IMG/VR virus record: IMGVR_UViG_3300010885_039212
Span: 31,734 to 95,733 of that record
Direction: 5' to 3' (one strand)
Source: a virus
Length of the DNA: 64,000 nucleotides
The notes beneath the pieces are model-generated. The model saw only the letters and a program-made list of their open reading frames with translations. It searched no databases and had not been told where the DNA came from. The translations under genes and the position numbers were made by a program. Below, piece by piece: positions 29,712 to 63,650 of this stretch. The stretch's first letter is position 1; each line of letters opens with the position of its first letter.

Positions 29712-32700
29712 ACAAATTTTATACAGGTTGCGTAGAAGATAGAAATGACCCACTAAAACTCGGTCGTTGTCAAGTACGTATTGTTGGTCTTCATACAGAA
29801 GATAAAACAATACTACCAACTGCTGATTTACCATGGGCATTCCCAGTAACTCCTATTACATCTGCTGGTGTTTCTGGAATTGGTACTACACCAATTGGTC
29901 CAGTTGAGGGTTCTTGGGTTCTTATTATGTTTATGGATCCAGACCAACAGATGCCTATTATGATGGGTACTCTTGGTGGTATTTCTCAAATCGCAAATGC
30001 AAAAGATGATTCTAAAACAATTCAAGTTGATAGTGTAAGTCCTGATGGAACTATTAACCAGAGTTCAGGCGATCCTGAAGCAACTACTACAAAAACACCA
30101 ACTAATTTACAAGATGGTAATATTTCAAAACCAGACGAGATTGTTGGTCCACTTGCAAAACTAATTGCTGGTGGTGAATCTGGTTCTGCAGGATATGATG
30201 CATTCAATAGAGGTAGTGGAGCACCAAAGGGAACTGGTTCTGTTGGTGGTCAAAAATTATCTTTGACAGATATGACTATCAAAGATATTATGGACAAACA
30301 ATCTCTTCCGCCAGGAGATCCTAATAGATTATTTGCAGTTGGTAAATATCAATGTATTCCTTCGACTTTAAAAGATGCATGTCAGAAACTTAACATTGAT
30401 GTAAACCAAAGATTCTCTTCATATACACAAGATCTTATATGTCAAGAATATTTGGTAGCACGTAAACGACCAAGATTACTTGCTTACTATCGCAATCCAA
30501 ATAAAAATAATGAAACACTTTTAAAAGAAGCTGGTAAAGCACTTGCTGCTGAATTTGCTTCTATTGAAGATCCATTCAATCTTAAATTTCCTTATGGTGG
30601 TGAAACTGGAACTTATTACAAAAATGGTAATAGAGTTAAAACATCATGGGATACTATTAAAGAGAACCTAGTTTCTGAATGGGAGTTTAGAAATAATCCT
30701 CAGGCTCCACCAGTAACAACAGCAATTGCAAGTGGTGATAAATTTGCTGCTAAAGGTACAGACTATACTGGTGTTCAGAAGTTATTACCAAAAGACGATT
30801 CTAAAAAATCTAAACCAACTGAATCTGCTGGTGATAGTCTGGTTGGCGATATAGTTGGAGCTATTGCTGGTGATATTATTCCAGAAGGTTTAGGTGATGG
30901 TTTATTTGATGGTGGTTTTGGAGAATTGCTGGGTGGTATAACAGATCTTGGTGGTTTAACTGATTTGGCTGATCTTGGTTTAGATTTCGCTGGTCTTGCT
31001 GATCTTGGGCTTGGAAATTTAGCTGATTTAGGATTAGGAGATCTTGGAGATCTTGGAGATCTTGGTGGTTTACTTGGAGATATGGGACTTTCTGGACTTG
31101 GTAATCTTGGTCCAGACCTAGTAAGTAATATAACTGAACTGCAAGGACAGATAACTGATTTAACTAAGTCAATCGGTTTAGATTCACCACTAGATGGAAT
31201 TCTTGGTAAAACTGCCAATGGTGGGTTTAACTTAAATGGAATGCTTACTGATGCTGGATTTAATGTTCAGGGAATTGATGTAAATGGTTTAGTTGCTAAA
31301 ACAACTGGTATTAATGTAAATAATTTAAATGTCAATAGTTTGGTTTCTCAGGCTACTGGTGTTAATTTGAACAATTTTGCTGGTGGTTTAAATGTTAACA
31401 ATTTAATTGGTCAATATACTAATGGTGATAGTTTAAATATTAACAACATAATTGGACAGGCTACCCAAGGATTAAATGTTAACAATTTGATTGGACAGGC
31501 TGTTAATGCAAGTGGAGTTAATAGTTTACTTGGACAGGTTACTGGAAATGGTTTAAACCTTAATAGTATTCTTGGTCAATCTACTGGGTTAAATCCAAAT
31601 AATTTATTGGGACAATTTGGTTCTTCATTAAATCAAATTACATCAAGTCTTGGTATTGGTAATCTTTCAGGATCAGTAACTGGATTAGTTGCAAGTCTTG
31701 GATTAACATCTTTCACGCCAAATGCTTTGATGGCTGAGTTAACTAAAATTGCTGGATCAACTCCTGGACAAGCAAAAGCAATAGTTTCTAATTTACAAAA
31801 TGAACCAACGATTCAATTACCAGAAGTTATTGGAGAACAGAAAGCCGATGGTACCATTAGTACTGGTAGTAATGTAGATCCAAATCGTGGTTTCCAAGAT
31901 CCTAATGGCAGATACCCAAAATATAAAAACGAACAAGATACAAACAGACTTGCTTCTGGAAACAATCTTGGAAGAACTATTGTTCTTGAAAAAGAAGCTG
32001 CACTAAAAACTGCAGTACCAATTGCCAATGGTGGTACATGGGATCAAGCACCAGTTCCTTATAATGCTGTTTATCCATATAACAAAGTGACTCAAACTGA
32101 ATCAGGACATGTGACTGAGTTTGATGATACGCCTGGATCTGAACGTATACATTTCTACCATAAAGCAGGAACATTTACTGAGACCGATGCCAATGGAACA
32201 CAGGTAAATCGAATAGTCGGTGATGGTTTTGAAATTATTGAACGTAATGGTTTTGTGTATGTGCAAGGCGCATTAAATGTTACTGTTGATGGAGCAATGA
32301 ATCTTCGTACAGATAACATATTTAATTTAGAAGTTTCTGGCGCAGCAAATATCAACATCTATAATGATGCCAATATTAATGTTAGCGGAAATGCTAATAT
32401 GGCAGTTGGTGGCGTTTATAATTTAAAAGCGCATCAAATTAATATGGAATCTGACGGACAATTTAATATTAAAGCAGGAAGTGGATTAAATATTCAATCT
32501 GATTCTGATTTAAACATCTATTCTGGTGGAACGATTTATAACGAAGCTGACTCTGATATTAATTTAAAATCTGTTGGAGCAATATTCACTGAAACAGATT
32601 CTGATGTATATATTAAAGCAGGTGGATTAGTTAATATAGAAAGCGATGAAAGTACCAATATTAATGCAGGTATGAAAGTTAATGTTACCGCTGGCACTAA

Positions 32701-51328: not shown

Positions 51329-52441
51329 ATGGCTTTCCAAATAAATGGTACAAATGTTATTGCTGATACAACAGCAGCAACAATAGATAACATTAATATT
51401 AATGTTGCGACCAGAGATGTTCAGGCAGGAACAACAGCATATGGTACCAGTGTGTATCAAGGTACTATAAGTGGATATTCTCATGGTGGGGCTGGTCCTA
51501 CAAGTCCAAGTCCAGTAGGATCTATAAAAATTGAGAAATTTTCGTTTCCGTCAAATGCTAATGCTACTTCTGTTGGATCCTTAACCAAAGGAAGATATAC
51601 TTCTTCAGGTGTAGGTTCTACAGTTAGTGGATATACTATGGCTGGATATACTGCAGATATGGATGGCCGAGCTTCAGTAAATACAACTTATGAGAAGTTT
51701 TCTTTTGCATCTGATGGTAATGGTGTTGGTGTTGGTAGATTGACAGTTGGTAGATGGAGACCATTTGGTGGTAGCGCATCTTCAACATATGGTTATACTG
51801 GTGGTGGTATTAATCCAGATCTTGGACCAAATAGTTCTACAGTAAGTAACTATGAGAAATTTCCATTTTCGTCAGATGAAAATATGGCAATTGTAAATAC
51901 TTTGTTGTGGTCGGCAAGTGGATTAAATATGGGTGCCACGTCTTCAGTGAGTGGATACATAATTGGCGATCAGCCTGCTTTTCCTGGTGGTGCAACTGGT
52001 ATTATTCAAAAATTCCCATTTGCAACAGACTCAACAACAACTTTAGTTACATCTTCAATGGTAGTATCAAGAAGAACTTACGCACAAGGTAATGGAGTTT
52101 CTTCAACAAATTTTGGATATGTTTCAGGTACCAGTGCACCATCACAGCCTGCAACATATGGTGTTTCTAATCAAATGAAACTAATAGAAAAATTTGCATT
52201 CGCATCAGATGGTGCTTCTACTGCAGTTGGTCAATTAACATTGGCCAGATATGGTTCCAGTGGACAATCTTCAACAATTAATGGTTACTGTTCTGGAGGT
52301 TATGGTGGAACTCCAGTAGCAGCAGTATCACTTGTTATTGATAATTGGCCATTCTCATCAGATTCAAACGCAACTTCTGTTGGACAGTTAGTTACTGGCA
52401 GAGAAGAACAAGCTGGATCACAAGCAAGATCACCGAGTTAA
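51329..52441 (+). CDS. Kelch-like beta-propeller protein A1
   Basis: About 50-aa repeats GY..GG...IEKFPF.SD...VG.L. Confidence 0.75.
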   Translation: MAFQINGTNVIADTTAATIDNININVATRDVQAGTTAYGTSVYQGTISGYSHGGAGPTSPSPVGSIKIEKFSFPSNANATSVGSLTKGRYTSSGVGSTVSGYTMAGYTADMDGRASVNTTYEKFSFASDGNGVGVGRLTVGRWRPFGGSASSTYGYTGGGINPDLGPNSSTVSNYEKFPFSSDENMAIVNTLLWSASGLNMGATSSVSGYIIGDQPAFPGGATGIIQKFPFATDSTTTLVTSSMVVSRRTYAQGNGVSSTNFGYVSGTSAPSQPATYGVSNQMKLIEKFAFASDGASTAVGQLTLARYGSSGQSSTINGYCSGGYGGTPVAAVSLVIDNWPFSSDSNATSVGQLVTGREEQAGSQARSPS

Positions 52442-52445
52442 AAAA

Positions 52446-53528
52446 ATGACATATCAAATATCAGGTACAACAGTTATTAATGATTCGTCTGTTACTAGTT
52501 TTCCCACATCAATTAGTACAACGGGATCTATAGCGTTTAGTTCAAATGATACGTTCCAAGGAACTGTGGCAGGATATACTTCTGCTGGTTGGAGTCCATC
52601 ACTGTATCCCACCAACCCTAATGGATATTTCGCTTCTATTCAAAGAACTTCATTTACATCAGATGGTAATTCCATTGTAACTGGAGCTTTATCTCGAGCT
52701 ATACGAGATGGCGGTGGATGTTCTTCTGATAGTAATGGTTACCATGCTAATGGATTTAATTCAAATCCTGGAGCTGGACAGATAGAAAAATTCCCATTCG
52801 CAAGTAATGCCAATTCAAATGTCGTTGGACAAATGAATGGTTGGTCTCATGGTGTTTCTTCTTCTTCAAGTATTCCATATGGATATGGATATATAATGGG
52901 TGGCGCTGGTTCAGGACAGCCAAACCCACAGCCATATCCAGTTACACCAGATGGATATTCAAATAAGATATCAAGATTTCCATTCGCAATAGAAACAAAT
53001 TCCACACTTATGGTTGGAACTTTATCTGTATCAAAAGGTTTTGGAAGTACTGGACATTCTTCACCTCTAGCTGGTTGGGCGGTAGGTGGATGGACTCCAG
53101 CTGGCGTAGGTCTTAGTAATATTGAAAAATATACATTTGCAACTGACTCTAGTGCAACTTCAGTTGGACAATTACCAGCTGCAAAGACTGGTTCTAGTGG
53201 TACATCATCTTCTACATATGGGTATGTAGCAGGTGGTTCAATTAACCAAAGTGGACCAGGAACAGTTGCTACCATTTATAAATGGCCATTTACATCTCCT
53301 GGAAATGCAACTTCAGTTGGACAATTAACAGTTGGAAGATATAGTGGAGTAATTGGGACTTCATCAACTGCTTCTGGATATAATATGGGTGGTCAACCAA
53401 GTGCTGCAGATGGTGGAGCTACAGCAGCGGTCATTGATAAATTCCCATTCGCATCAGATTCAAACGCAACTAGTGTTGGTAGTCTCGCTTGGAGACTACA
53501 CAATAATTACTCTAGTCAACAGGATTAA
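52446..53528 (+). CDS. Kelch-like beta-propeller protein A2
   Basis: Same repeat. Confidence 0.75.
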   Translation: MTYQISGTTVINDSSVTSFPTSISTTGSIAFSSNDTFQGTVAGYTSAGWSPSLYPTNPNGYFASIQRTSFTSDGNSIVTGALSRAIRDGGGCSSDSNGYHANGFNSNPGAGQIEKFPFASNANSNVVGQMNGWSHGVSSSSSIPYGYGYIMGGAGSGQPNPQPYPVTPDGYSNKISRFPFAIETNSTLMVGTLSVSKGFGSTGHSSPLAGWAVGGWTPAGVGLSNIEKYTFATDSSATSVGQLPAAKTGSSGTSSSTYGYVAGGSINQSGPGTVATIYKWPFTSPGNATSVGQLTVGRYSGVIGTSSTASGYNMGGQPSAADGGATAAVIDKFPFASDSNATSVGSLAWRLHNNYSSQQD

Positions 53529-53531
53529 AAA

Positions 53532-54623
53532 ATGGCATTCCAAATAAATGGTACAACAATTTTAGATGCTAATGCTGGCGGTTCTAGTACAATATCAAAT
53601 GTTCCATCACTTAATGCCACTGGCGATGCTGCGTATTTTGAAGCAACTCCATCATCTCCGTATTATGGAACTGTGGCAGGATTTGTTTCTGCTGGTTATG
53701 GAGCACCTCCATCACCACCGCCAACTGGATATCAAAGGGTAATTCAAAGATTCCCATTTGCAACTGATACGGATTCAACATATATTGGTGATGGTTTGGT
53801 TCAAGGATATTCAGTAACAGGAAATTCATCAACTACCCATGGATATAGACAAGGTATGGGTTTTCCTACATCAATTAATCAACCAGATGGTACTAATTGG
53901 AGTTCAAACCAAGAAAAATTTACATTTTCTTCTACAACATATGCTTCAAGCGCAGGTAGTCTTGTAAATGCGGTTATGAGTGGTATCGGAGTATCAGCAC
54001 CAGACACTGGATATATTATCGGTGGTATTAATGGTTCTGCTCCAAATGGTGGTAGTATAAGAAATTATATACAAAAATTCTCGTTTAGATCAGATGCAAA
54101 TGCATCTTTAAATAGTGGAATAGTTACTTTAGGAGGTAGAGCAAATAGTGGTGGACATGCTTCTACTATTAAAGGATATGTTTCTGCTGGTAGTTCGTAT
54201 TCAGGTAACCCTGGAGTATCACCTCTTGGAATAACTGCAGCAATTGAAAGTTTTCCATTCTCAACTGATTCAAATACAACTAGTGTTGGTCAAGTTACTG
54301 TTGGTAGAACAAATGCAGTGGGTCAATCTTCACCTATATCTGGATATACTTCGGGTGGTTATTTACCATCACCTGTTACGCACTATACTACAATTGATAA
54401 ATTTCCATTTGCATCCAATACCAATTCAACCTCTGTTGGTTCATTAACTCAGGCTAGAACTGATGGTTGCGGTGCAGGACATTCTTCAGTTAATTATGGA
54501 TATACCTCTGGTGGTTATATGCAAACCAGAATTGATAAATTTAGTTTTTCCACTGATTCCAATGCAACTACAGTTGGTTCTTTGGCTAAACAAACATGGC
54601 TCGCTGCTGGGCATCAAGATTAA
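53532..54623 (+). CDS. Kelch-like beta-propeller protein A3
   Basis: Same repeat. Confidence 0.75.
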   Translation: MAFQINGTTILDANAGGSSTISNVPSLNATGDAAYFEATPSSPYYGTVAGFVSAGYGAPPSPPPTGYQRVIQRFPFATDTDSTYIGDGLVQGYSVTGNSSTTHGYRQGMGFPTSINQPDGTNWSSNQEKFTFSSTTYASSAGSLVNAVMSGIGVSAPDTGYIIGGINGSAPNGGSIRNYIQKFSFRSDANASLNSGIVTLGGRANSGGHASTIKGYVSAGSSYSGNPGVSPLGITAAIESFPFSTDSNTTSVGQVTVGRTNAVGQSSPISGYTSGGYLPSPVTHYTTIDKFPFASNTNSTSVGSLTQARTDGCGAGHSSVNYGYTSGGYMQTRIDKFSFSTDSNATTVGSLAKQTWLAAGHQD

Positions 54624-54712: not shown

Positions 54713-55552
54713 ATGAACCGCTTGCATTTTTGTGGTGGTCTTCCAAGATCTGGAAGTACCATTTTGATGAATATTTTACAACAGAATCCAAAAATCTTCA
54801 CTACTGGGACTTGTGCCCTGCCTGATCTAATTTCAGATCACATTTTAATCAAATCTAGATACCGAGAAATGTTCCAAGCCATGTCTGTACATGATGCGGA
54901 TAAGGCTATGTATGGATTAATTCATGGTGCAACAAAAGGTTGGTTTGAGGGATTAACAAATAAAGAAGTTGTAATTTCTAAAAATAGAAATTGGTCTTCT
55001 ATTTTTCATCTATATAAAGATTCAAAATATATTGTAATGGTGCGTGATATTCGTGATATAGTTGAAAGTTTTGAGAAGGTCAATCATAAAACACTGGCAC
55101 TTCATTCTTTCGGTGATACTGGAACTACTTCTCCTGCAATGCACGAGTTAGAGAAATATCATTTTTATTTTCAACAAGGAAATGCACTACAGGCTTCCAT
55201 TAATTTTGAAATTCCAAGGTTAATGGAAAGATATATGTCTGGTGGACAAAATAATATAAAATTTGTTCGTTATGAAGATTTTACACAAGATCCAGTTTAT
55301 ATTTTAAAAAAGATATATGAATTTTTAGGGTTGGACTATTTTGAACATGATTTAAATAATATTCAACAACAAACACTGTTTGAGCATGATCATGCTTATT
55401 TTAGAGAAAGAACGGATCATGTTATTGATCCAGTTTTTAAATATTATAAACCTCCAGTTAGAACTTTACCAGATCGTTTTCATGAGAAAACTTTAAAAGA
55501 GTATGACTGGTTTTACAAAGGATTTTATCCAGATGTTATTCCAACCAATTGA
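54713..55552 (+). CDS. PAPS-dependent sulfotransferase
   Basis: 5'-PSB GLPRSGST, 3'-PB VRDIRDIVES, VRYEDF, IYEFLG. Confidence 0.9.
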   Translation: MNRLHFCGGLPRSGSTILMNILQQNPKIFTTGTCALPDLISDHILIKSRYREMFQAMSVHDADKAMYGLIHGATKGWFEGLTNKEVVISKNRNWSSIFHLYKDSKYIVMVRDIRDIVESFEKVNHKTLALHSFGDTGTTSPAMHELEKYHFYFQQGNALQASINFEIPRLMERYMSGGQNNIKFVRYEDFTQDPVYILKKIYEFLGLDYFEHDLNNIQQQTLFEHDHAYFRERTDHVIDPVFKYYKPPVRTLPDRFHEKTLKEYDWFYKGFYPDVIPTN

Positions 55553-56105
55553 AATAAATGGACTTAATACATTTATCGTTCAGAGTAAAGTATCTGATGA
55601 AGCTGTAGAACAAGCGATTAATACATTTAATGTATTAATACCTCATGCTGGACTAACTGGCAATGGTGTTAATCCAGAGAAAAAAGATTCTTTAGATGTT
55701 AGTGTAGTTCCAAATACTGTTCTTATTGAACGTGAAATTCGTGAGATAGTTGGAAATTATTGTGAATACTATTCTTTAGATAAATTTGTAGCTCCTTTAG
55801 ATATTACTGAACACATTAATATACAAAAATATCCACTAAAGGGTGCATACCATTCTATACATGCTGATCGAGGATGGTCGCCATTAGATATGTATAGAGA
55901 ATTAGTTTTTATGACATATTTAAATACGATACATAGTGGTGGTGAAACAGAATTTATGTTTTACAAACTAAAAATTAAACCAGAAAAAGGTTTAACATTA
56001 GTATGGCCAGCTGGATGGACGCATGCACATCGTGGGTTACCTGCTCCAACTGCTGAAAAAATAATCCTTACAGGATGGTTTAGTCCATCAAGAAATTATG
56101 ATTAA
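55533..56105 (+). CDS. 2OG-Fe(II) oxygenase
   Basis: HAD, MTYLN, GGETEF, WPAGWTHAHRG, KIILTGW. Confidence 0.92.
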   Translation: MLFQPIEINGLNTFIVQSKVSDEAVEQAINTFNVLIPHAGLTGNGVNPEKKDSLDVSVVPNTVLIEREIREIVGNYCEYYSLDKFVAPLDITEHINIQKYPLKGAYHSIHADRGWSPLDMYRELVFMTYLNTIHSGGETEFMFYKLKIKPEKGLTLVWPAGWTHAHRGLPAPTAEKIILTGWFSPSRNYD

Positions 56106-56664
56106 AGAATTACCACACCATAAATTATTTCCCACTCCTATATGGGGTTATGTTTTATCAAACTCACATTATCAAGCAATTGACTACGTTAATAAAATAA
56201 GAGAGATACAACAAACAGAACCTTCTGTTAAAAAAAGTAATTTTAGTGGATATCAAAGTCGAGATAATTTGCATGAAGAACCGATTTTTCAAGAATTGGT
56301 TAAATATGAAATTCTTCCACTTGCTCAAGATATTATAAATACATATTCAAATGTTAAAGTAAAAATGGATCAAATGTGGGCAAACATTAACGATAAGTAT
56401 AGTTGCAATCAATCTCATATACATAGTGGACTACTATCTGGAGTATTCTACTTACAGACTCCAGAAAATTGTGGACAAATTGTTTTCTGTAATCCTGCAG
56501 TGAGAAGTAATTATCACATTATAAAAGAACCAGATTATGGAGTACCTCCTCAAAGATTGGCATGTTTGTTTTTTCCTAGTTGGTTAGAACATTATGTTGA
56601 ACCAAATTGCAGTGATGAGAGTAGAATTAGTATTAGTTTTAATATAGGAGAAATTTATGAATAA
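56098..56664 (+). CDS. 2OG-Fe(II) oxygenase (TIGR02466-like)
   Basis: LFPTPI, WANIN, HIH, SGVFYL, FPSWLEHYV, RISISFN. Confidence 0.92.
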   Translation: MIKELPHHKLFPTPIWGYVLSNSHYQAIDYVNKIREIQQTEPSVKKSNFSGYQSRDNLHEEPIFQELVKYEILPLAQDIINTYSNVKVKMDQMWANINDKYSCNQSHIHSGLLSGVFYLQTPENCGQIVFCNPAVRSNYHIIKEPDYGVPPQRLACLFFPSWLEHYVEPNCSDESRISISFNIGEIYE

Positions 56665-57931
56665 ATCAGCAGAATTTTTTGATCAAAATGGTTATGTGGT
56701 AGTTACAGATGTTCTACCAAAACAAACATGCGAAGAGTTAACTCAGCACATGTTTAGTCTTTTAAATGATGGTAAGCTGACAAAAGATGATCAGTGTCCA
56801 ATTTCAGATGCAATTTATGGAGATCCAGTGTTTGATGATCTCTTGCAAAAATTTGCAGAACCAGTTGGTAATCAAGTAGGTCGTAAACTGTTACCAACTT
56901 ATACTTACGCAAGAATTTATCGTCCAGGAGAAGTTTTAAAGAAACATAAAGATCGTCCAGCATGTGAGATTAGTTGCACATTAACTCTTGGTTATAATGG
57001 TAAATCTGTTTGGCCAATTTTCTTTGATGAAAATAAAGCAATACCAGTTATGTTAGAGCCAGGAGAAATGGCTGTGTATAAAGGATGTGATATTGCACAT
57101 TGGAGAACAGAATTTAAAGGCGATTGGCATGTGCAAGTATTTTTTCATTATGTAGATGCTAATGGACCATATAAAGATGAGTATAAAGATCGTCGCCCAG
57201 ATTTTGGAATTGACAAAAAAACTTTGACTACAAATGCAGGTCAAGTTCAAACTGATGTTACTGAACAAGAAAAAATGTTACAACAAGTTAAATATAATAA
57301 GCCAGTATTTGGTGGTGTAATTATTTCTAGTCAAGATGATTCATTTCCTGGATATACAAGTATAGATTCTTCTAATTATCGAGGATTGATGTTTACCAAA
57401 GAAGAGTGTACTAAGATTACTAATTTAGTTAAAGATAATTATCCTGCTCCTGCATCTATTGGTGGAAATCAAAATAATAGTAAAGTTGCAGAATCGATAA
57501 GATCAGCTGATATTTACATTTTAGAAAATGATGATGAAAATAGATGGCTTTTTGATAAAGTTTCAACTATTGTAACTCTAGCGAATAAACTACATTTTGA
57601 TTATGATATTAGTGGTATTATCCATGGTATTCAGTTAATCCATTATAAGTCTAATACTGAAGTTGCTGGACATTATGACTGGCATATTGACTCTGGTCCA
57701 GGAATTTCTGCTACCAGAAAAATATCATTTACAGCACAAATTAGTCCTCCAGAAGATTATGAGGGATGTGAACTTATCCTAAATAATAATGGGCAGATAG
57801 TTACGGCAACAAAAGAACAAGGTTCTGTGCATTTATTTCCAAGTTATATGTCACACAGAGTTACACCAGTAACTAAAGGCGAACGATTTGCTTTAGTAAT
57901 TTGGATCCATGGATCGAGGAGATTTAGATAA
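56657..57931 (+). CDS. tandem two-domain 2OG-Fe(II) oxygenase
   Basis: Domain 1: PTYTYARIY..HKDRPACE..HWR..QVFFHY; domain 2: YDWHID..RKIS..FPSY..HRVTPV..GERFALVIW. Confidence 0.92.
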   Translation: MNKSAEFFDQNGYVVVTDVLPKQTCEELTQHMFSLLNDGKLTKDDQCPISDAIYGDPVFDDLLQKFAEPVGNQVGRKLLPTYTYARIYRPGEVLKKHKDRPACEISCTLTLGYNGKSVWPIFFDENKAIPVMLEPGEMAVYKGCDIAHWRTEFKGDWHVQVFFHYVDANGPYKDEYKDRRPDFGIDKKTLTTNAGQVQTDVTEQEKMLQQVKYNKPVFGGVIISSQDDSFPGYTSIDSSNYRGLMFTKEECTKITNLVKDNYPAPASIGGNQNNSKVAESIRSADIYILENDDENRWLFDKVSTIVTLANKLHFDYDISGIIHGIQLIHYKSNTEVAGHYDWHIDSGPGISATRKISFTAQISPPEDYEGCELILNNNGQIVTATKEQGSVHLFPSYMSHRVTPVTKGERFALVIWIHGSRRFR

Positions 57932-59250: not shown

Positions 59251-59379
59251 ATGATAGAAATTACCGCACAAAGAATTCTAGAGCTAGAACTTCCAGAATT
59301 GATTAGTTTATTGAGAAATTTACAAATAGAAGACTTGGATGCATTTAAAAAAGTACGAGAATTACTAGAAGATCTATAA
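59251..59379 (+). CDS. 42-aa Leu/Glu-rich protein
   Basis: Follows CTAAATA; TAATG overlap with next gene; not in ORF track. Confidence 0.6.
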   Translation: MIEITAQRILELELPELISLLRNLQIEDLDAFKKVRELLEDL

Positions 59380-60395
59380 TGACTATCAGAGTTAAAAAAG
59401 ACCGCATAGATTTCGACAATGGTTTTTCCATTGTCGAAACAGCAGAGGGATTTTCCTTTAATGGAGTTATCAATGCTAAAACTGCTCAAAGAAGTGGTTT
59501 TCAAGGTGTAATTGCGGGTTGGACTGCTGGTGGATATGTATATCCAGGCACAAGTACGCAAATTGAAAAAATTCCATTTGCAACAACTTTCACTCACTTT
59601 GGTGTTGGAAATTTAACAACACCTAGTATCTATGGACAGAATGGACACTCATCTGGAACTGATGGATATGCTAGTGGGGGTTTTACAACTAACATTGAAA
59701 AATTTCCATTTGCATCTGGTTCGGTTACAGCAGTTATATATGGAACACTTGGATCAAGTGGTGGTCTTGGTTTTGCAGTAAGTTCAGATACTGATGGTTA
59801 CAGCCATATGGGACATCCACCATTTCCATCTACTGGTAAGGGTGGTAAAGCAGTTTATAAATTTCCATTTGCAGTTGCTGGTAATATATCTAATCAAGTT
59901 TTTCAGTTAAACACAGGAAGACAACTTCCAGCATCTCAACAAAATACTATATATGGATTTGCCAGTGGCGGAAGAACAGATCCTCCTGGTAGTCCTACTC
60001 CAAGTTATGTTGGAACATCAACTATTGAAAAATTCCAATTTGGAACAGACTATACTAATTATACAGTTGGTGCTTTAACTCAGGCTCGCATTGCTGCTAG
60101 TGGTATTTCTGGACCAGTATATGCATATACTGCTGGTGGGTATAATCCATCTGCAGTTGCAACGATTGATAAATTTCCAATGGTTACTAATAATAATGCA
60201 ATAAGTGTCGGATCATTAAGCGTTACGAAATATTCTGGCTTTGGTAATAGTAGCACAACAGCTGGTTGGGTTCCTGGTGGTAATACGCCTTCACTAAATA
60301 CAGTTGAAACTTTTCCATTTGCCACTGATACAAATGCAACTAATGTTGGTTCTTTGTATACAAGCAGATATAGTGGTGCACCAGCTCAGGTATAA
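59379..60395 (+). CDS. Kelch-like beta-propeller protein B1
   Basis: IEKFPF repeats. Confidence 0.75.
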   Translation: MTIRVKKDRIDFDNGFSIVETAEGFSFNGVINAKTAQRSGFQGVIAGWTAGGYVYPGTSTQIEKIPFATTFTHFGVGNLTTPSIYGQNGHSSGTDGYASGGFTTNIEKFPFASGSVTAVIYGTLGSSGGLGFAVSSDTDGYSHMGHPPFPSTGKGGKAVYKFPFAVAGNISNQVFQLNTGRQLPASQQNTIYGFASGGRTDPPGSPTPSYVGTSTIEKFQFGTDYTNYTVGALTQARIAASGISGPVYAYTAGGYNPSAVATIDKFPMVTNNNAISVGSLSVTKYSGFGNSSTTAGWVPGGNTPSLNTVETFPFATDTNATNVGSLYTSRYSGAPAQV

Positions 60396-60398
60396 CAA

Positions 60399-61508
60399 AT
60401 GACTATTAAAATAAATTCAGACAGTATACAGTTTCCAGGTGGAACCAGAATAGTTGCAACTCCAACTGGTATTGCTATAACTGGTAATCAAACAGAAGGT
60501 GCTTCTGGGTTTTTAACTGCAAAAGCATTTTCATATAAATCTCCAAATATTGGAGAAAACTACGGATATACTTCTGGTGGTGCTGGACCATCTGCTGGTG
60601 CAAATACTTTAACTGCAATTCAAAAATTTGCATTTGCATCAACAGTAAGTTCAACCCCTGTTGGTTCTTTAGCAATTGGTACTAACAATGTTCGTTGGGG
60701 ATCATCTTCTCCAAGTAATGGATATAATGTGGGTGGTCAAAATAGTCAGGCTGGACCAGCAGCACCATTTGCTCAGGCACCGCTTGGGATGGCATTGACC
60801 ACAATTCAAAAATTCCCATTTACATCAGATTCAAATGCAACTAATATTGGACAATTAACATATGGTTCATATGGTACTTCTAATGGGCACTCTACCATTG
60901 AAAATGGATTTGGTGGCGGTGGAATTTATTATACAACCAGAGTTGCTAGATGGTCTCATGTAAATGATGGAAATAGTCAAGTGCACACTAATTTAACTAC
61001 TGGTGTTATGTATGGGAGTTCGTTATCATCTGCATTTGCTGGTTACCAGGCTGGTGGTGGTAGTTCTCCAGCTTCACGAAACAGAACTGCAATTGAAAAA
61101 TTCCCATTTGCCATTCAAAATACTATATCTACTATAGGAAACCTTACACAAGGGCGAGAATCAATAGCTGGTGTTAATGCTCAACAAAATGGTTATTTCT
61201 GGGGTGGACAAGCAACTGCAACTTCAGCTGTTACAACAATTGCGGAAAAGTTTAATTGGAGTAATGAAAACGTAGTTGCTATTCCTAACATGTATACTCC
61301 ATATACGTCGCCAAATGGAGGTACTACTGCGGCAGGCGCAAAGACACCATCATCAAGTGCAACTACAGGATTTCTTGCTGGAGGAAATAATACTGTTGGA
61401 GGTGCTATGGTTGCAGTTGATGCTTTTTCTTTTGCTTCAGATGGATCTTCTGTCCTAGTTGGAACATTGGGAACTGCAGCATCGCAATCATCACCAAGTT
61501 TTTACTAA
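60399..61508 (+). CDS. Kelch-like beta-propeller protein B2
   Basis: IQKFPF repeats. Confidence 0.75.
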   Translation: MTIKINSDSIQFPGGTRIVATPTGIAITGNQTEGASGFLTAKAFSYKSPNIGENYGYTSGGAGPSAGANTLTAIQKFAFASTVSSTPVGSLAIGTNNVRWGSSSPSNGYNVGGQNSQAGPAAPFAQAPLGMALTTIQKFPFTSDSNATNIGQLTYGSYGTSNGHSTIENGFGGGGIYYTTRVARWSHVNDGNSQVHTNLTTGVMYGSSLSSAFAGYQAGGGSSPASRNRTAIEKFPFAIQNTISTIGNLTQGRESIAGVNAQQNGYFWGGQATATSAVTTIAEKFNWSNENVVAIPNMYTPYTSPNGGTTAAGAKTPSSSATTGFLAGGNNTVGGAMVAVDAFSFASDGSSVLVGTLGTAASQSSPSFY

Positions 61509-61520
61509 AAGAAGAATAAA

Positions 61521-62516
61521 ATGGCAATCAAACTTTTTGCAGATCATATTGAAATTGGAAATTTTATCTTAACAGAAGGTAACCAAGGAATTCAATTTGA
61601 TGGTGTTATTAATGCGGATAGAATCAATAGTAATCCATATCAAGGTGTAAGTGCTGGATATACTGTTGGACAATATGGTCCACCGCAAATTGGACAATTT
61701 CCATTCTCGACTTACGTAACTCAAAAAAATCCACAGACTCCTTCTTTTCCACCATATTCTAGAAGTACAGCTGGTGGTGCATCTAATACACATGGTTATC
61801 AATTTGGACACTATCAAGGTGGTTCACCACCATTAATGTCCAGTATTGAAAAATTTCCATTTGCAGATGTAACAGCTCCTGCTGTTGCAACTGGTGCGTT
61901 AAAAAATGCTGCTGGTGGAATTTCTGTTTATTTTAAGAGTTCAGAAAACGCATATATTGATGATTCAACCACTTGTAAAATTCCATGGGCAACAGATCAA
62001 CCATCTGTCCCACTACCATTATTTCCTCAAGGTGGTACTAATCTTGGCGGTGGTCATGGAGTTTCGTCTTCAAGTCATGGATATGGTACAGGGCAATATT
62101 CTGCTAGTTCAGTACTAAGAAAATTCCCATTCGCATCAGAAAATGGAATGCAAGATCTTGGTCAGTTAATGTATTATCCAGGATTTAATAGAAAAAATTG
62201 TTCTTCACCTACCAATGGATATGCATTAAGTGGACAGACCTATGGACCAGCAGGTAATGCAGTATTAGCGTATTCTATGGAAAGATTTCCTTTTGCACAA
62301 GATACAGCAGGTAAAGCAGTTTTAATTGGATCACTTGGTCCAAGCACTGGTGTTTGGGGAATCACCCATTCTTCTCGAACTAATGGCCATTGGACTGAAG
62401 GTACTGTTGGAGTAAATACATTTCCATTTGCCACTGATGCTTCTGCCACGCAACAACAAGCAGCACCAGCACTTGCATTTGGTACATTTTTAGCATCGTC
62501 TCATGTTCATGTCTAA
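61521..62516 (+). CDS. Kelch-like beta-propeller protein B3
   Basis: Divergent FPFA repeats. Confidence 0.75.
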   Translation: MAIKLFADHIEIGNFILTEGNQGIQFDGVINADRINSNPYQGVSAGYTVGQYGPPQIGQFPFSTYVTQKNPQTPSFPPYSRSTAGGASNTHGYQFGHYQGGSPPLMSSIEKFPFADVTAPAVATGALKNAAGGISVYFKSSENAYIDDSTTCKIPWATDQPSVPLPLFPQGGTNLGGGHGVSSSSHGYGTGQYSASSVLRKFPFASENGMQDLGQLMYYPGFNRKNCSSPTNGYALSGQTYGPAGNAVLAYSMERFPFAQDTAGKAVLIGSLGPSTGVWGITHSSRTNGHWTEGTVGVNTFPFATDASATQQQAAPALAFGTFLASSHVHV

Positions 62517-62554
62517 TATATAGAATACTATTTTTTAATTATGGAGAAAATATT

Positions 62555-63415
62555 ATGGCACAGCGAATTTTAGTAATGGGATTACCAGGATCTGGTAAAA
62601 CTTATTTTACACAACATTTAAAAACCTATTTGGAAACTCATGGGGATCTTTATAAAATTAATCCTCAACGAATAATGAATTATGAGGGTATTCCAGATAG
62701 GAATTTCCTTCGGGTAAATGTTGACTGGTTCAACGCTGATGAGATAAGAAAGAAATATAATGATTGGGATTTCTCTAAAGAAGGAAGAATTCGTCAATCA
62801 TTACGTATGTTTCAGTTTGCATTTGAATGTACTGGTGACTATGTAATTTGTGATTTTGTTGCACCACTTGTTGAGATGCGCAACAACTTCAAAGCGGATT
62901 GGGTTATCTGGATGGATACCATTGATGCTGGTCGTTATGATGATACAAACAAAGCATTTACTCCACCAGATGTTTATGATTTTAGAATCACTGAGCAAAA
63001 CGCAGAGAAATGGGCAGAGTTTGTTGGTTCGCATATTCTAGAAAATCGTCGTAGACCTAAGTTTGACTGGCAAAAAGAAACAGTTCAAATGCTTGGTAGA
63101 TGGCAACCTTGGCATGAAGGTCATAGAAAATTGTTTGAAAGATCTATTGCTAAAACTGGTCAGGTTGTAATTCAGATTAGAGACTGTCAGGGGTGGCAAG
63201 GTTCCAATCCTTTTGCAATCGAGCAAGTAAAAAATTACATCAAACGAGATCTTGATCCTTTATTTCAAGGACAATATGAAATTCAAGTTGTTCCAAATAT
63301 TGTAAATATTACATATGGACGTGATGTTGGATATAAAATTGAACAAGAATCTTTTGATAAATCTGTAACAGATATTTCAGCCACCAAGATCCGTAAGGAA
63401 ATGGGAATTGAGTGA
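62555..63415 (+). CDS. APS-kinase (CysC)-like domain fused to HIGH-type nucleotidyltransferase
   Basis: GLPGSGKT, NADEIR, DWDFSKEGRIRQ, DFVAP; C-domain GRWQPWHEGH...YGRDVGY...ISATKIR. Confidence 0.85.
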   Translation: MAQRILVMGLPGSGKTYFTQHLKTYLETHGDLYKINPQRIMNYEGIPDRNFLRVNVDWFNADEIRKKYNDWDFSKEGRIRQSLRMFQFAFECTGDYVICDFVAPLVEMRNNFKADWVIWMDTIDAGRYDDTNKAFTPPDVYDFRITEQNAEKWAEFVGSHILENRRRPKFDWQKETVQMLGRWQPWHEGHRKLFERSIAKTGQVVIQIRDCQGWQGSNPFAIEQVKNYIKRDLDPLFQGQYEIQVVPNIVNITYGRDVGYKIEQESFDKSVTDISATKIRKEMGIE

Positions 63416-63614
63416 TACTTCAGTTCGCAGTCTAGCAAAGGCTGTTAGCTGGCGAGTTACAGGAACTATTGATACGTTTCTTATTAGTTGGCTAATAACT
63501 GGGCAGGTGTTACTTGCTTCAGGTATTGCTCTTACTGAAATACTAACAAAAGTCTTTTTATTTTGGGCTCATGAAAGAGTTTGGAATAAAATAAATTGGG
63601 GTAAATCCCAATAA
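63408..63614 (+). CDS. DUF2061 small membrane protein
   Basis: RSLAKAVSWR.TGTIDT...HERVWNKINWG. Confidence 0.88.
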   Translation: MSDTSVRSLAKAVSWRVTGTIDTFLISWLITGQVLLASGIALTEILTKVFLFWAHERVWNKINWGKSQ

Positions 63615-63624
63615 ATATTTTTGT

Positions 63625-63650
63625 AAAACCCCACCTTGTGTGGGGTTTTT
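63625..63650 (+). terminator. intrinsic terminator
   Basis: AAAACCCCAC-cttgt-GTGGGGTTTTT. Confidence 0.88.

Follow-up and report, generated by a model that had tools for sequence, protein, structure and literature searches.

Sulfate activation is the entry step to all sulfate assimilation and sulfation, and only two types of sulfate-activating enzyme are known, Sat and CysDN. Bifunctional 3'-phosphoadenosine 5'-phosphosulfate (PAPS) synthases, including human PAPSS1/2 (structure 1x6v), the Sat/APS kinase of Aquifex aeolicus (2gks) and CysN/CysC, activate sulfate and phosphorylate adenosine 5'-phosphosulfate (APS) within one polypeptide of ~570–625 residues. A far shorter protein that would combine both steps is encoded in the 64,000-nucleotide stretch analysed here (the window), which spans positions 31,734 to 95,733 of the virus record IMGVR_UViG_3300010885_039212 and forms the 3' part of this 95.7-kb IMG/VR phage contig. 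The gene in question (62555–63415, plus strand) encodes a 286-residue fusion of a trimmed APS-kinase-like domain and a mini nucleotidyltransferase domain (mini-NT).

The fusion protein has the same kinase-then-transferase order as human PAPSS, its kinase half is homologous to that of the described enzymes, and entries of these enzymes are among its fold matches. It differs from the bifunctional PAPS synthases in its length, in a transferase half that lacks both a Pfam ATP-sulfurylase match and the PUA-like domain, and in a kinase half that lacks the lid. Judged from sequence and context, we consider it fairly likely that the product of the fusion gene is a minimal, bifunctional PAPS synthase. 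In the proposed mechanism, the C-terminal 110-residue HxGH domain would adenylylate sulfate (ATP + sulfate -> APS + pyrophosphate (PPi)), and the fused trimmed kinase, given its conserved APS-kinase residues and fold, would phosphorylate the 3'-OH of APS to yield PAPS. With both domains in one polypeptide, the unfavourable first step would be drawn forward. The PAPS would supply the phage's own sulfotransferase, encoded 7 kb upstream, and a co-transcribed DUF2061 protein, probably part of the module, may anchor the enzyme at the membrane or aid sulfate access.

The fusion protein and its kinase half

The open reading frame (ORF) extends from an ATG to a stop codon in both the ORF list and the translation, and a Shine-Dalgarno-like GGAG (62543–62546, plus strand), read from the sequence, is located 8 nucleotides 5' of the ATG. 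The whole gene matches phrog_10255 at 2.7e-44, and the AlphaFold2 model of the full-length protein has a mean predicted local distance difference test score (pLDDT) of 91.6. A preliminary description of this DNA had proposed a 286-residue ORF in which a kinase precedes a small nucleotidyltransferase, and the ORF, its translation, the motifs and the fold matches agree on this layout. The protein belongs to a large family: its matches number over 8000 clusters at 90% identity, and 1974 representatives at the 50% level. Among 44 full-length homologues that are 33–54% identical to the query, the residues K15, R65 and F73 in the kinase half and G181, R182, Q184, H187, H190, G255, R256, G259 and R280 in the mini-NT are invariant. 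The size of the family and these invariant residues indicate that the motif pattern is not due to chance. The closest DNA matches of the window in a sequencing-run search come from freshwater and lake metagenomes; the matches listed are all DNA runs, with no RNA run among them.

The APS-kinase-like domain comprises residues 1–164 (62555–63046, plus strand), as delineated by Pfam PF01583, Foldseek and alignment with CysC. The P-loop GLPGSGKT spans residues 9–16 and is followed by the APS-kinase core motifs NADEIR (D62 and R65), DFSKEGR (F73, S74 and R78) and DFVAP (F101 and P104). The residues G9, L10, G14, K15, D62, R65, F73, S74, R78, R84, F101 and P104 are invariant between the phage domain and two canonical CysC domains. 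D62 and R65 (the LDGDxxR motif), F73, R78 and the F101-x-x-P104 element (the FISP motif) correspond to the APS-contacting residues of established APS-kinase structures. In the Foldseek list, ranks 1–11 are all occupied by APS kinases with E values of 1.5e-5 to 6e-5 (for example 4fxp at 1.5e-5), and 4rfv has the highest target-based TM score (0.79) among these top matches. The first other kinase is the gluconate kinase 1ko1 at rank 13, and APS kinases dominate the remainder. The CysC-like motifs that had been reported for the N-terminal domain are thus borne out by the P-loop, D62, R65, F73 and R78 and by the APS kinases that head the fold list.

Profile searches place the kinase half at the margin of its family. 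The Pfam APS_kinase match (PF01583) covers residues 56–113 only and, at 21.6 bits, lies just above the gathering cut-off of 21.1. In NCBIfam, the best adenylyl-sulfate-kinase model, NF004041, scores 19.9 bits against a cut-off of 127, TIGR00455 is not among the matches, and no adenylyl-sulfate-kinase model reaches its cut-off. Compared with CysC (PF01583/TIGR00455), the phage kinase retains the fold, the P-loop and the Asp, Arg, Phe and Arg residues that contact the substrate, but it is ~35 residues shorter, passes the Pfam threshold only marginally, lacks the KGLYKKAR lid and contains a 27-residue insertion specific to its clade. The insertion, at residues 29–55 (62639–62719, plus strand), is a gap in 43 of the 44 aligned homologues and is predicted to be disordered (pLDDT 54–57). 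On the basis of its motifs and modelled fold, the kinase half is probably a functional, trimmed 3'-kinase for an APS-like substrate.

The small nucleotidyltransferase domain

The mini-NT (residues 176–286; 63080–63412, plus strand) is a candidate ATP sulfurylase, a designation that draws on its invariant motifs, its fold and its fusions. The two motifs that the preliminary description had assigned to a ~110-residue C-terminal domain are located at residues 181–190 (GRWQPWHEGH; 63095–63124) and 274–280 (ISATKIR; 63374–63394), and two further motifs, NPF and YGRDVGY (63314–63334), are found in the domain. The motif residues of the ~110–120-residue mini-NT (GRxQPxHxGH, NPF, YGRDVGY and ISxTxxR) are invariant across sets of 44 and 57 members. 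When modelled alone (pLDDT 94.1), the domain has no more than three core strands, together with a coil of 22 residues that carries the invariant YGRDVGY. By its motifs and model, the mini-NT is a member of the HIGH nucleotidyltransferase superfamily.

Foldseek ranks NadM, a nicotinamide mononucleotide (NMN) adenylyltransferase (NMNAT), and phosphopantetheine adenylyltransferase (PPAT) first against the mini-NT model. In an exhaustive structural search, the top match is PPAT 4nah (Z 10.3), followed by NadM NMNAT and archaeal NMNAT (Z 10.2 each), with NadR at Z 8.7–9.2. The Sat structure from Thermus thermophilus (1v47) aligns with a Z of 8.7 and a root-mean-square deviation of 3.5 over 116 residues, and other Sat structures reach Z 5.7–6.3, below NMNAT and PPAT. 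The structural comparison with Sat and NadM that had been suggested at the outset therefore recovers a fold common to both, and NadM (Z 10.2) is nearer to the mini-NT than Sat (Z 8.7).

The relationship to Sat (PF01747; 1v47) is confined to the HIGH-type nucleotidyltransferase fold and the motif order. The order HxxH, GRD and ISxTxxR is common to the mini-NT and Sat, and the profile comparison left the GRD motifs unaligned. In an hhalign comparison with nine Sat catalytic domains, the probability is 14.5% and the alignment covers 17 columns, corresponding to the ISxTxxR helix only. The mini-NT is about half the size of the Sat catalytic domain, displays no significant profile similarity to it, and has GRxQPxHxGH and YGRDVGY in place of the Sat motifs QTRNPxH and GRDHAG. 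The Pfam scan of the 286-residue protein returned no PF01747 (ATP-sulfurylase) match. Derivation of the mini-NT as a shrunken Sat was accordingly rejected in favour of a separate lineage. The same scan returned neither PAPS_reduct nor GTP_EFTU, and the protein is thus not of the CysDN type.

The proximity to NMNAT invites a reading as an enzyme of NAD salvage, which would assign NMN adenylyltransferase activity to the mini-NT and the role of a nicotinamide-riboside kinase, or a related one, to the P-loop domain, in an order reversed relative to NadR. The best sequence matches of the C-terminal domain are indeed NadM and archaeal NMNAT (2qjt at 3e-4; NF002243 at 2.9e-6), in line with the Z values for NadM, archaeal NMNAT and NadR, and a NADAR gene adjoins the homologue in the Sanovirus phage Bhz60. 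The mini-NT also shares a GRFQPFHxGH-type motif, an NPF after strand 2 and an ISxTxIR helix with NadM and archaeal NMNAT (2qjt and 1f9a) and with PPAT (CoaD). However, it misses the family cut-offs by ~100–155 bits, and only its first ~70 residues align. The stand-alone NMNAT models TIGR01527 and NF002243 score 24.7–27 bits against cut-offs of 127–181 and match at profile positions ~4–72 of 167–175 only, and the bifunctional model NF003785 scores 22.9 bits against a cut-off of 418. Between strand 3 and the final helix, the mini-NT has the short coil with the invariant YGRDVGY in place of the corresponding segment of NMNAT and PPAT. Relative to NMNAT, it lacks ~50 residues that lie after strand 3 and before the ISxT helix, the stretch that holds the nicotinamide pocket. 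The top fold matches of the kinase half are APS kinases and not NadR-type kinases, and the genomic contexts of the mini-NT (CysC fusion, cys operon, sulfotransferases and DUF2061) relate to sulfur and not to NAD or coenzyme A (CoA). A role in NAD salvage is very unlikely. Because the family criteria of Sat and NMNAT are both missed, the mini-NT is assigned to neither family.

The PPAT matches point to another pair of reactions, the last two steps of CoA synthesis, in which PPAT and dephospho-CoA kinase act in succession. Chemistry at the 3'-OH of an adenylate and a PPAT-like fold would fit these steps, 4nah is the top structural match, many PPAT matches are present in the Foldseek list, and some homologues are annotated as 'phosphopantetheine adenylyltransferase' in databases. 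Nevertheless, we regard this assignment as extremely improbable. The NCBIfam PPAT model NF001985 reaches only 15.2 of the 104 bits that its cut-off requires, and the Z of 10.3 represents a fold likeness that is generic for the superfamily. Moreover, the kinase half resembles APS kinase and not CoaE, and the gene neighbourhoods contain no CoA genes and provide a sulfur context instead.

Genomic contexts in phages and bacteria

The preliminary description had noted a sulfotransferase gene upstream of the fusion. This gene (54713–55552, plus strand) is found 7.0 kb 5' of the fusion and encodes a 279-residue PAPS-type sulfotransferase (PF13469 at 6.3e-19; PF00685 at 1.2e-12) that has a PRSGST loop of the kind that binds 5'-phosphosulfate, as well as an RD...S stretch. 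Its motifs and position make it the likely consumer of the fusion product. No second sulfotransferase and no CysQ-type phosphatase for 3'-phosphoadenosine 5'-phosphate was found in the 95.7-kb phage record. The arrangement was counted at the 80 closest viral loci, 60 of which extend 2 kb or more upstream of the fusion. Of these 60 loci, 40 have a sulfotransferase gene on the same strand no more than 8 kb upstream, at distances of 0.8–8 kb, and 49 of the 50 sulfotransferase genes found at the 80 loci are upstream of the fusion. Among 50,697 records of isolate phages, only 10 match the window sulfotransferase.

Sanovirus phages encode a fusion protein that is 32–37% identical to that of the window. 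In Stenotrophomonas phage Bhz60, the sole Sanovirus examined, a Sulfotransfer_4-like gene (26.2 bits, above the cut-off) is located two genes upstream of the fusion. The Bhz60 locus (L001, 6978–8741) comprises this Sulfotransfer_4-like gene (192 residues, annotated as hypothetical), a NADAR-domain gene, the kinase-NT fusion and a DNA methyltransferase gene.

A DUF2061 gene for a small membrane protein (63408–63614, plus strand; PF09834 at 3.7e-21) shares its first 8 nucleotides, from a TTG start, with the 3' end of the fusion gene, and DUF2061 therefore probably belongs to the same module. Of 78 related phage loci, 19 have DUF2061 directly 3' of the fusion. In other settings, at least 12 clusters join DUF2061 to APS-kinase domains, and in one case its fusion partner is CysN.

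In bacteria, the mini-NT is joined to a canonical kinase. Proteins of ~310 residues contain a mini-NT, 42% identical to that of the window, N-terminal to a canonical CysC, and the CysC part passes the TIGR00455 equivalog threshold (233.6 bits against 138.7). This mini-NT-CysC fusion is represented by at least 120 marine protein clusters and occurs in marine alphaproteobacteria. In a single-cell genome of the OCS116 cluster, its gene is chromosomal and adjoins genes for glutamate synthase and a POT transporter. The protein P0236 also has the reversed order, in which the mini-NT precedes a trimmed kinase. Together with the phage form, these proteins establish that the mini-NT occurs in both fusion orders and with two types of kinase. 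The metagenomic protein P0187 (395 residues) carries an N-terminal DUF4118 transmembrane domain ahead of a kinase-NT fusion, which is another hint, from sequence, of an enzyme that works at the membrane. Two other metagenomic proteins, P0263 and P0279, combine the mini-NT with partial chorismate synthase or 3-dehydroquinate synthase and were set aside as probable chimeric assemblies.

The two domains are also found as separate genes. Two small alphaproteobacterial genomes carry an operon of cysG-like, cysI, cysH and DUF2061 genes, followed in this order by genes for a short APS kinase (168 residues) and a mini-NT (117 residues). The parts of the window module are 41–44% (kinase), 49–57% (mini-NT) and 53–55% (DUF2061) identical to the products of the operon genes. 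These identities indicate that the phage module corresponds, in fused form, to a bacterial module in a sulfate-assimilation operon.

Stand-alone or fused, the mini-NT is present in 11 of 401 sampled alphaproteobacteria; the 11 carriers include G263, an unpublished genome that is counted only here as CysD-bearing. Neither Sat nor CysD was found in seven of the 11. Five of the carriers without Sat and CysD were tested for further genes; four of these have Sulfotransfer_3 genes, and none has a clear CysH. In one of these alphaproteobacteria in which neither Sat nor CysD was found (2.06-Mb contig), a sulfotransferase gene starts 12 bp 3' of a gene for a 260-residue fusion. Within the OCS116-type order, four of 25 small genomes carry the fusion. 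No Sat match was obtained in these 25 genomes, and PAPS_reduct matches only weakly in five of them, in frames of 312–432 residues, so that no clear CysD or CysH is evident in the order.

ASST-type arylsulfotransferase genes (PF14269, 77–84 bits) adjoin the fusion in two alphaproteobacteria (locus L191, 5926–7545, and locus L192, 6565–8166; minus strand). Classical ASST enzymes work without PAPS, and their pairing with a kinase-NT fusion is therefore odd.

The distribution of Sat and CysD bears on the possibility that the kinase half alone serves sulfate metabolism. In that case, the small domain would be regulatory, nucleotide-binding or active in the reverse direction (APS + PPi -> ATP + sulfate), and Sat or CysDN of the host would provide APS. 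Fungal ATP sulfurylases, which bear a regulatory APS-kinase-like domain, offer a precedent. The co-occurrence of Sat or CysD with the mini-NT in part of the bacterial carriers and the lack of a significant anticorrelation with known sulfurylases would agree with such a division of labour. We nonetheless judge it quite unlikely, as the catalytic-type HxGH, ISxTxxR and GRD motifs are invariant across members that are only 33–54% identical, seven carriers lack Sat and CysD while sulfotransferases are found in four of the five tested, and the mini-NT also exists as a stand-alone gene beside a kinase gene.

A different substrate is conceivable as well. The small domain could nucleotidylate another anion or a phosphate ester, and the kinase could add a 3'-phosphate, to produce another PAPS-like donor. 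In the Campylobacter O-methyl-phosphoramidate pathway, a cytidylyltransferase and an APS-kinase homologue make 3'-phospho-CDP-amidate in a parallel manner. The divergence of the phage kinase, which is barely above the Pfam cut-off and reaches no NCBIfam adenylyl-sulfate-kinase cut-off, would be explained by such a donor, as would the use of phosphate esters by the enzymes whose folds come closest to the small domain and the contexts without sulfur genes in the OCS116-type group. This alternative is unlikely in view of the fusion of the mini-NT to a canonical CysC above the equivalog cut-off, its place within a cysI-cysH operon, the three kinds of sulfotransferase family encoded nearby (Sulfotransfer_3, Sulfotransfer_4 and ASST-like) and the retention of the APS-contacting residues of canonical kinases.

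Several observations weigh against a minimal PAPS synthase and must be set beside this evidence. By both sequence and fold, the mini-NT is nearest to NMNAT and PPAT, not to Sat, with which it aligns at one helix only, and its closest relatives act on phosphate esters, not sulfate. In the kinase half, the ~35 residues missing relative to canonical CysC include the KGLYKKAR lid, in place of which GRYDDTNKAF is found. The OCS116-type fusion has no sulfur-related neighbour genes at its locus. The cysH of the operon (locus L186, 2779–3483) encodes the CC...CxxC motifs typical of APS reductases, and the operon would then need APS but neither a kinase nor PAPS for assimilation. Four of the 11 alphaproteobacterial carriers also have a Sat or CysD-like gene. 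Across the 401 alphaproteobacteria, the depletion of Sat and CysD among carriers gave one-sided Fisher p values of 0.08–0.65 depending on the CysD threshold; as this depletion is not significant, phyletic complementarity with Sat and CysD is not claimed. A sample of 400 Pseudomonadota yielded no further carrier and, certain alphaproteobacteria aside, cellular members of the family are rare. In the phage set, one third of the loci with enough flank have no sulfotransferase gene within 8 kb, and many of the 80 loci are close relatives and hence not independent.

With these points taken into account, the CysC fusion, the cys operon, the sulfotransferase neighbours and DUF2061 favour the earlier proposal of a 286-residue bifunctional enzyme of PAPS synthesis, in which sulfate activation itself is the inferred step. 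The proposal that the small domain is a new type of ATP sulfurylase likewise gains from its fusions, operon and neighbours, with the activity inferred from these contexts; any ancestry as a shrunken Sat falls away. We lean towards the view that the mini-NT founds a third, minimal class of ATP sulfurylase, which would be derived from the NMNAT/PPAT lineage independently of Sat and CysDN. The mini-NT, the trimmed kinase and DUF2061 would then constitute a portable PAPS module shared by aquatic phages and by a number of streamlined bacteria from marine and freshwater habitats, in which neither known sulfurylase was found. Literature searches returned no paper on this family or on a new type of ATP sulfurylase.

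If the minimal PAPS synthase is real, genomes scored as unable to activate sulfate may be able to do so, which would change how their sulfur metabolism is read, and working sulfotransferases in bacteria without a detected Sat or CysD would be explained. Phages would bring their own PAPS supply for the sulfation of some target. The protein would also represent a very small PAPS-regenerating enzyme for biotechnology.

Neighbouring genes in the window

The pair formed by the fusion and DUF2061 genes is closed by a terminator-like hairpin (63625–63649, plus strand) with a 10-bp stem and a T-rich tail. The hairpin was identified by a consensus scan alone, in which four sites were found against 1.0 expected.

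Six paralogous genes for proteins of 331–370 residues with repeated IEKFPFA-like units are located at 51329–54623 and 59379–62516. No Pfam match was obtained for the three of the six paralogues that were scanned. These repeat proteins, whose genes flank the sulfotransferase and oxygenase genes, may be substrates or partners of modification enzymes.

Directly 3' of the sulfotransferase gene, three consecutive genes (55503–57931) encode 2-oxoglutarate-Fe(II) oxygenases (PF13640 and PF13759). Their position beside the sulfotransferase gene suggests hydroxylation and subsequent sulfation of some target.

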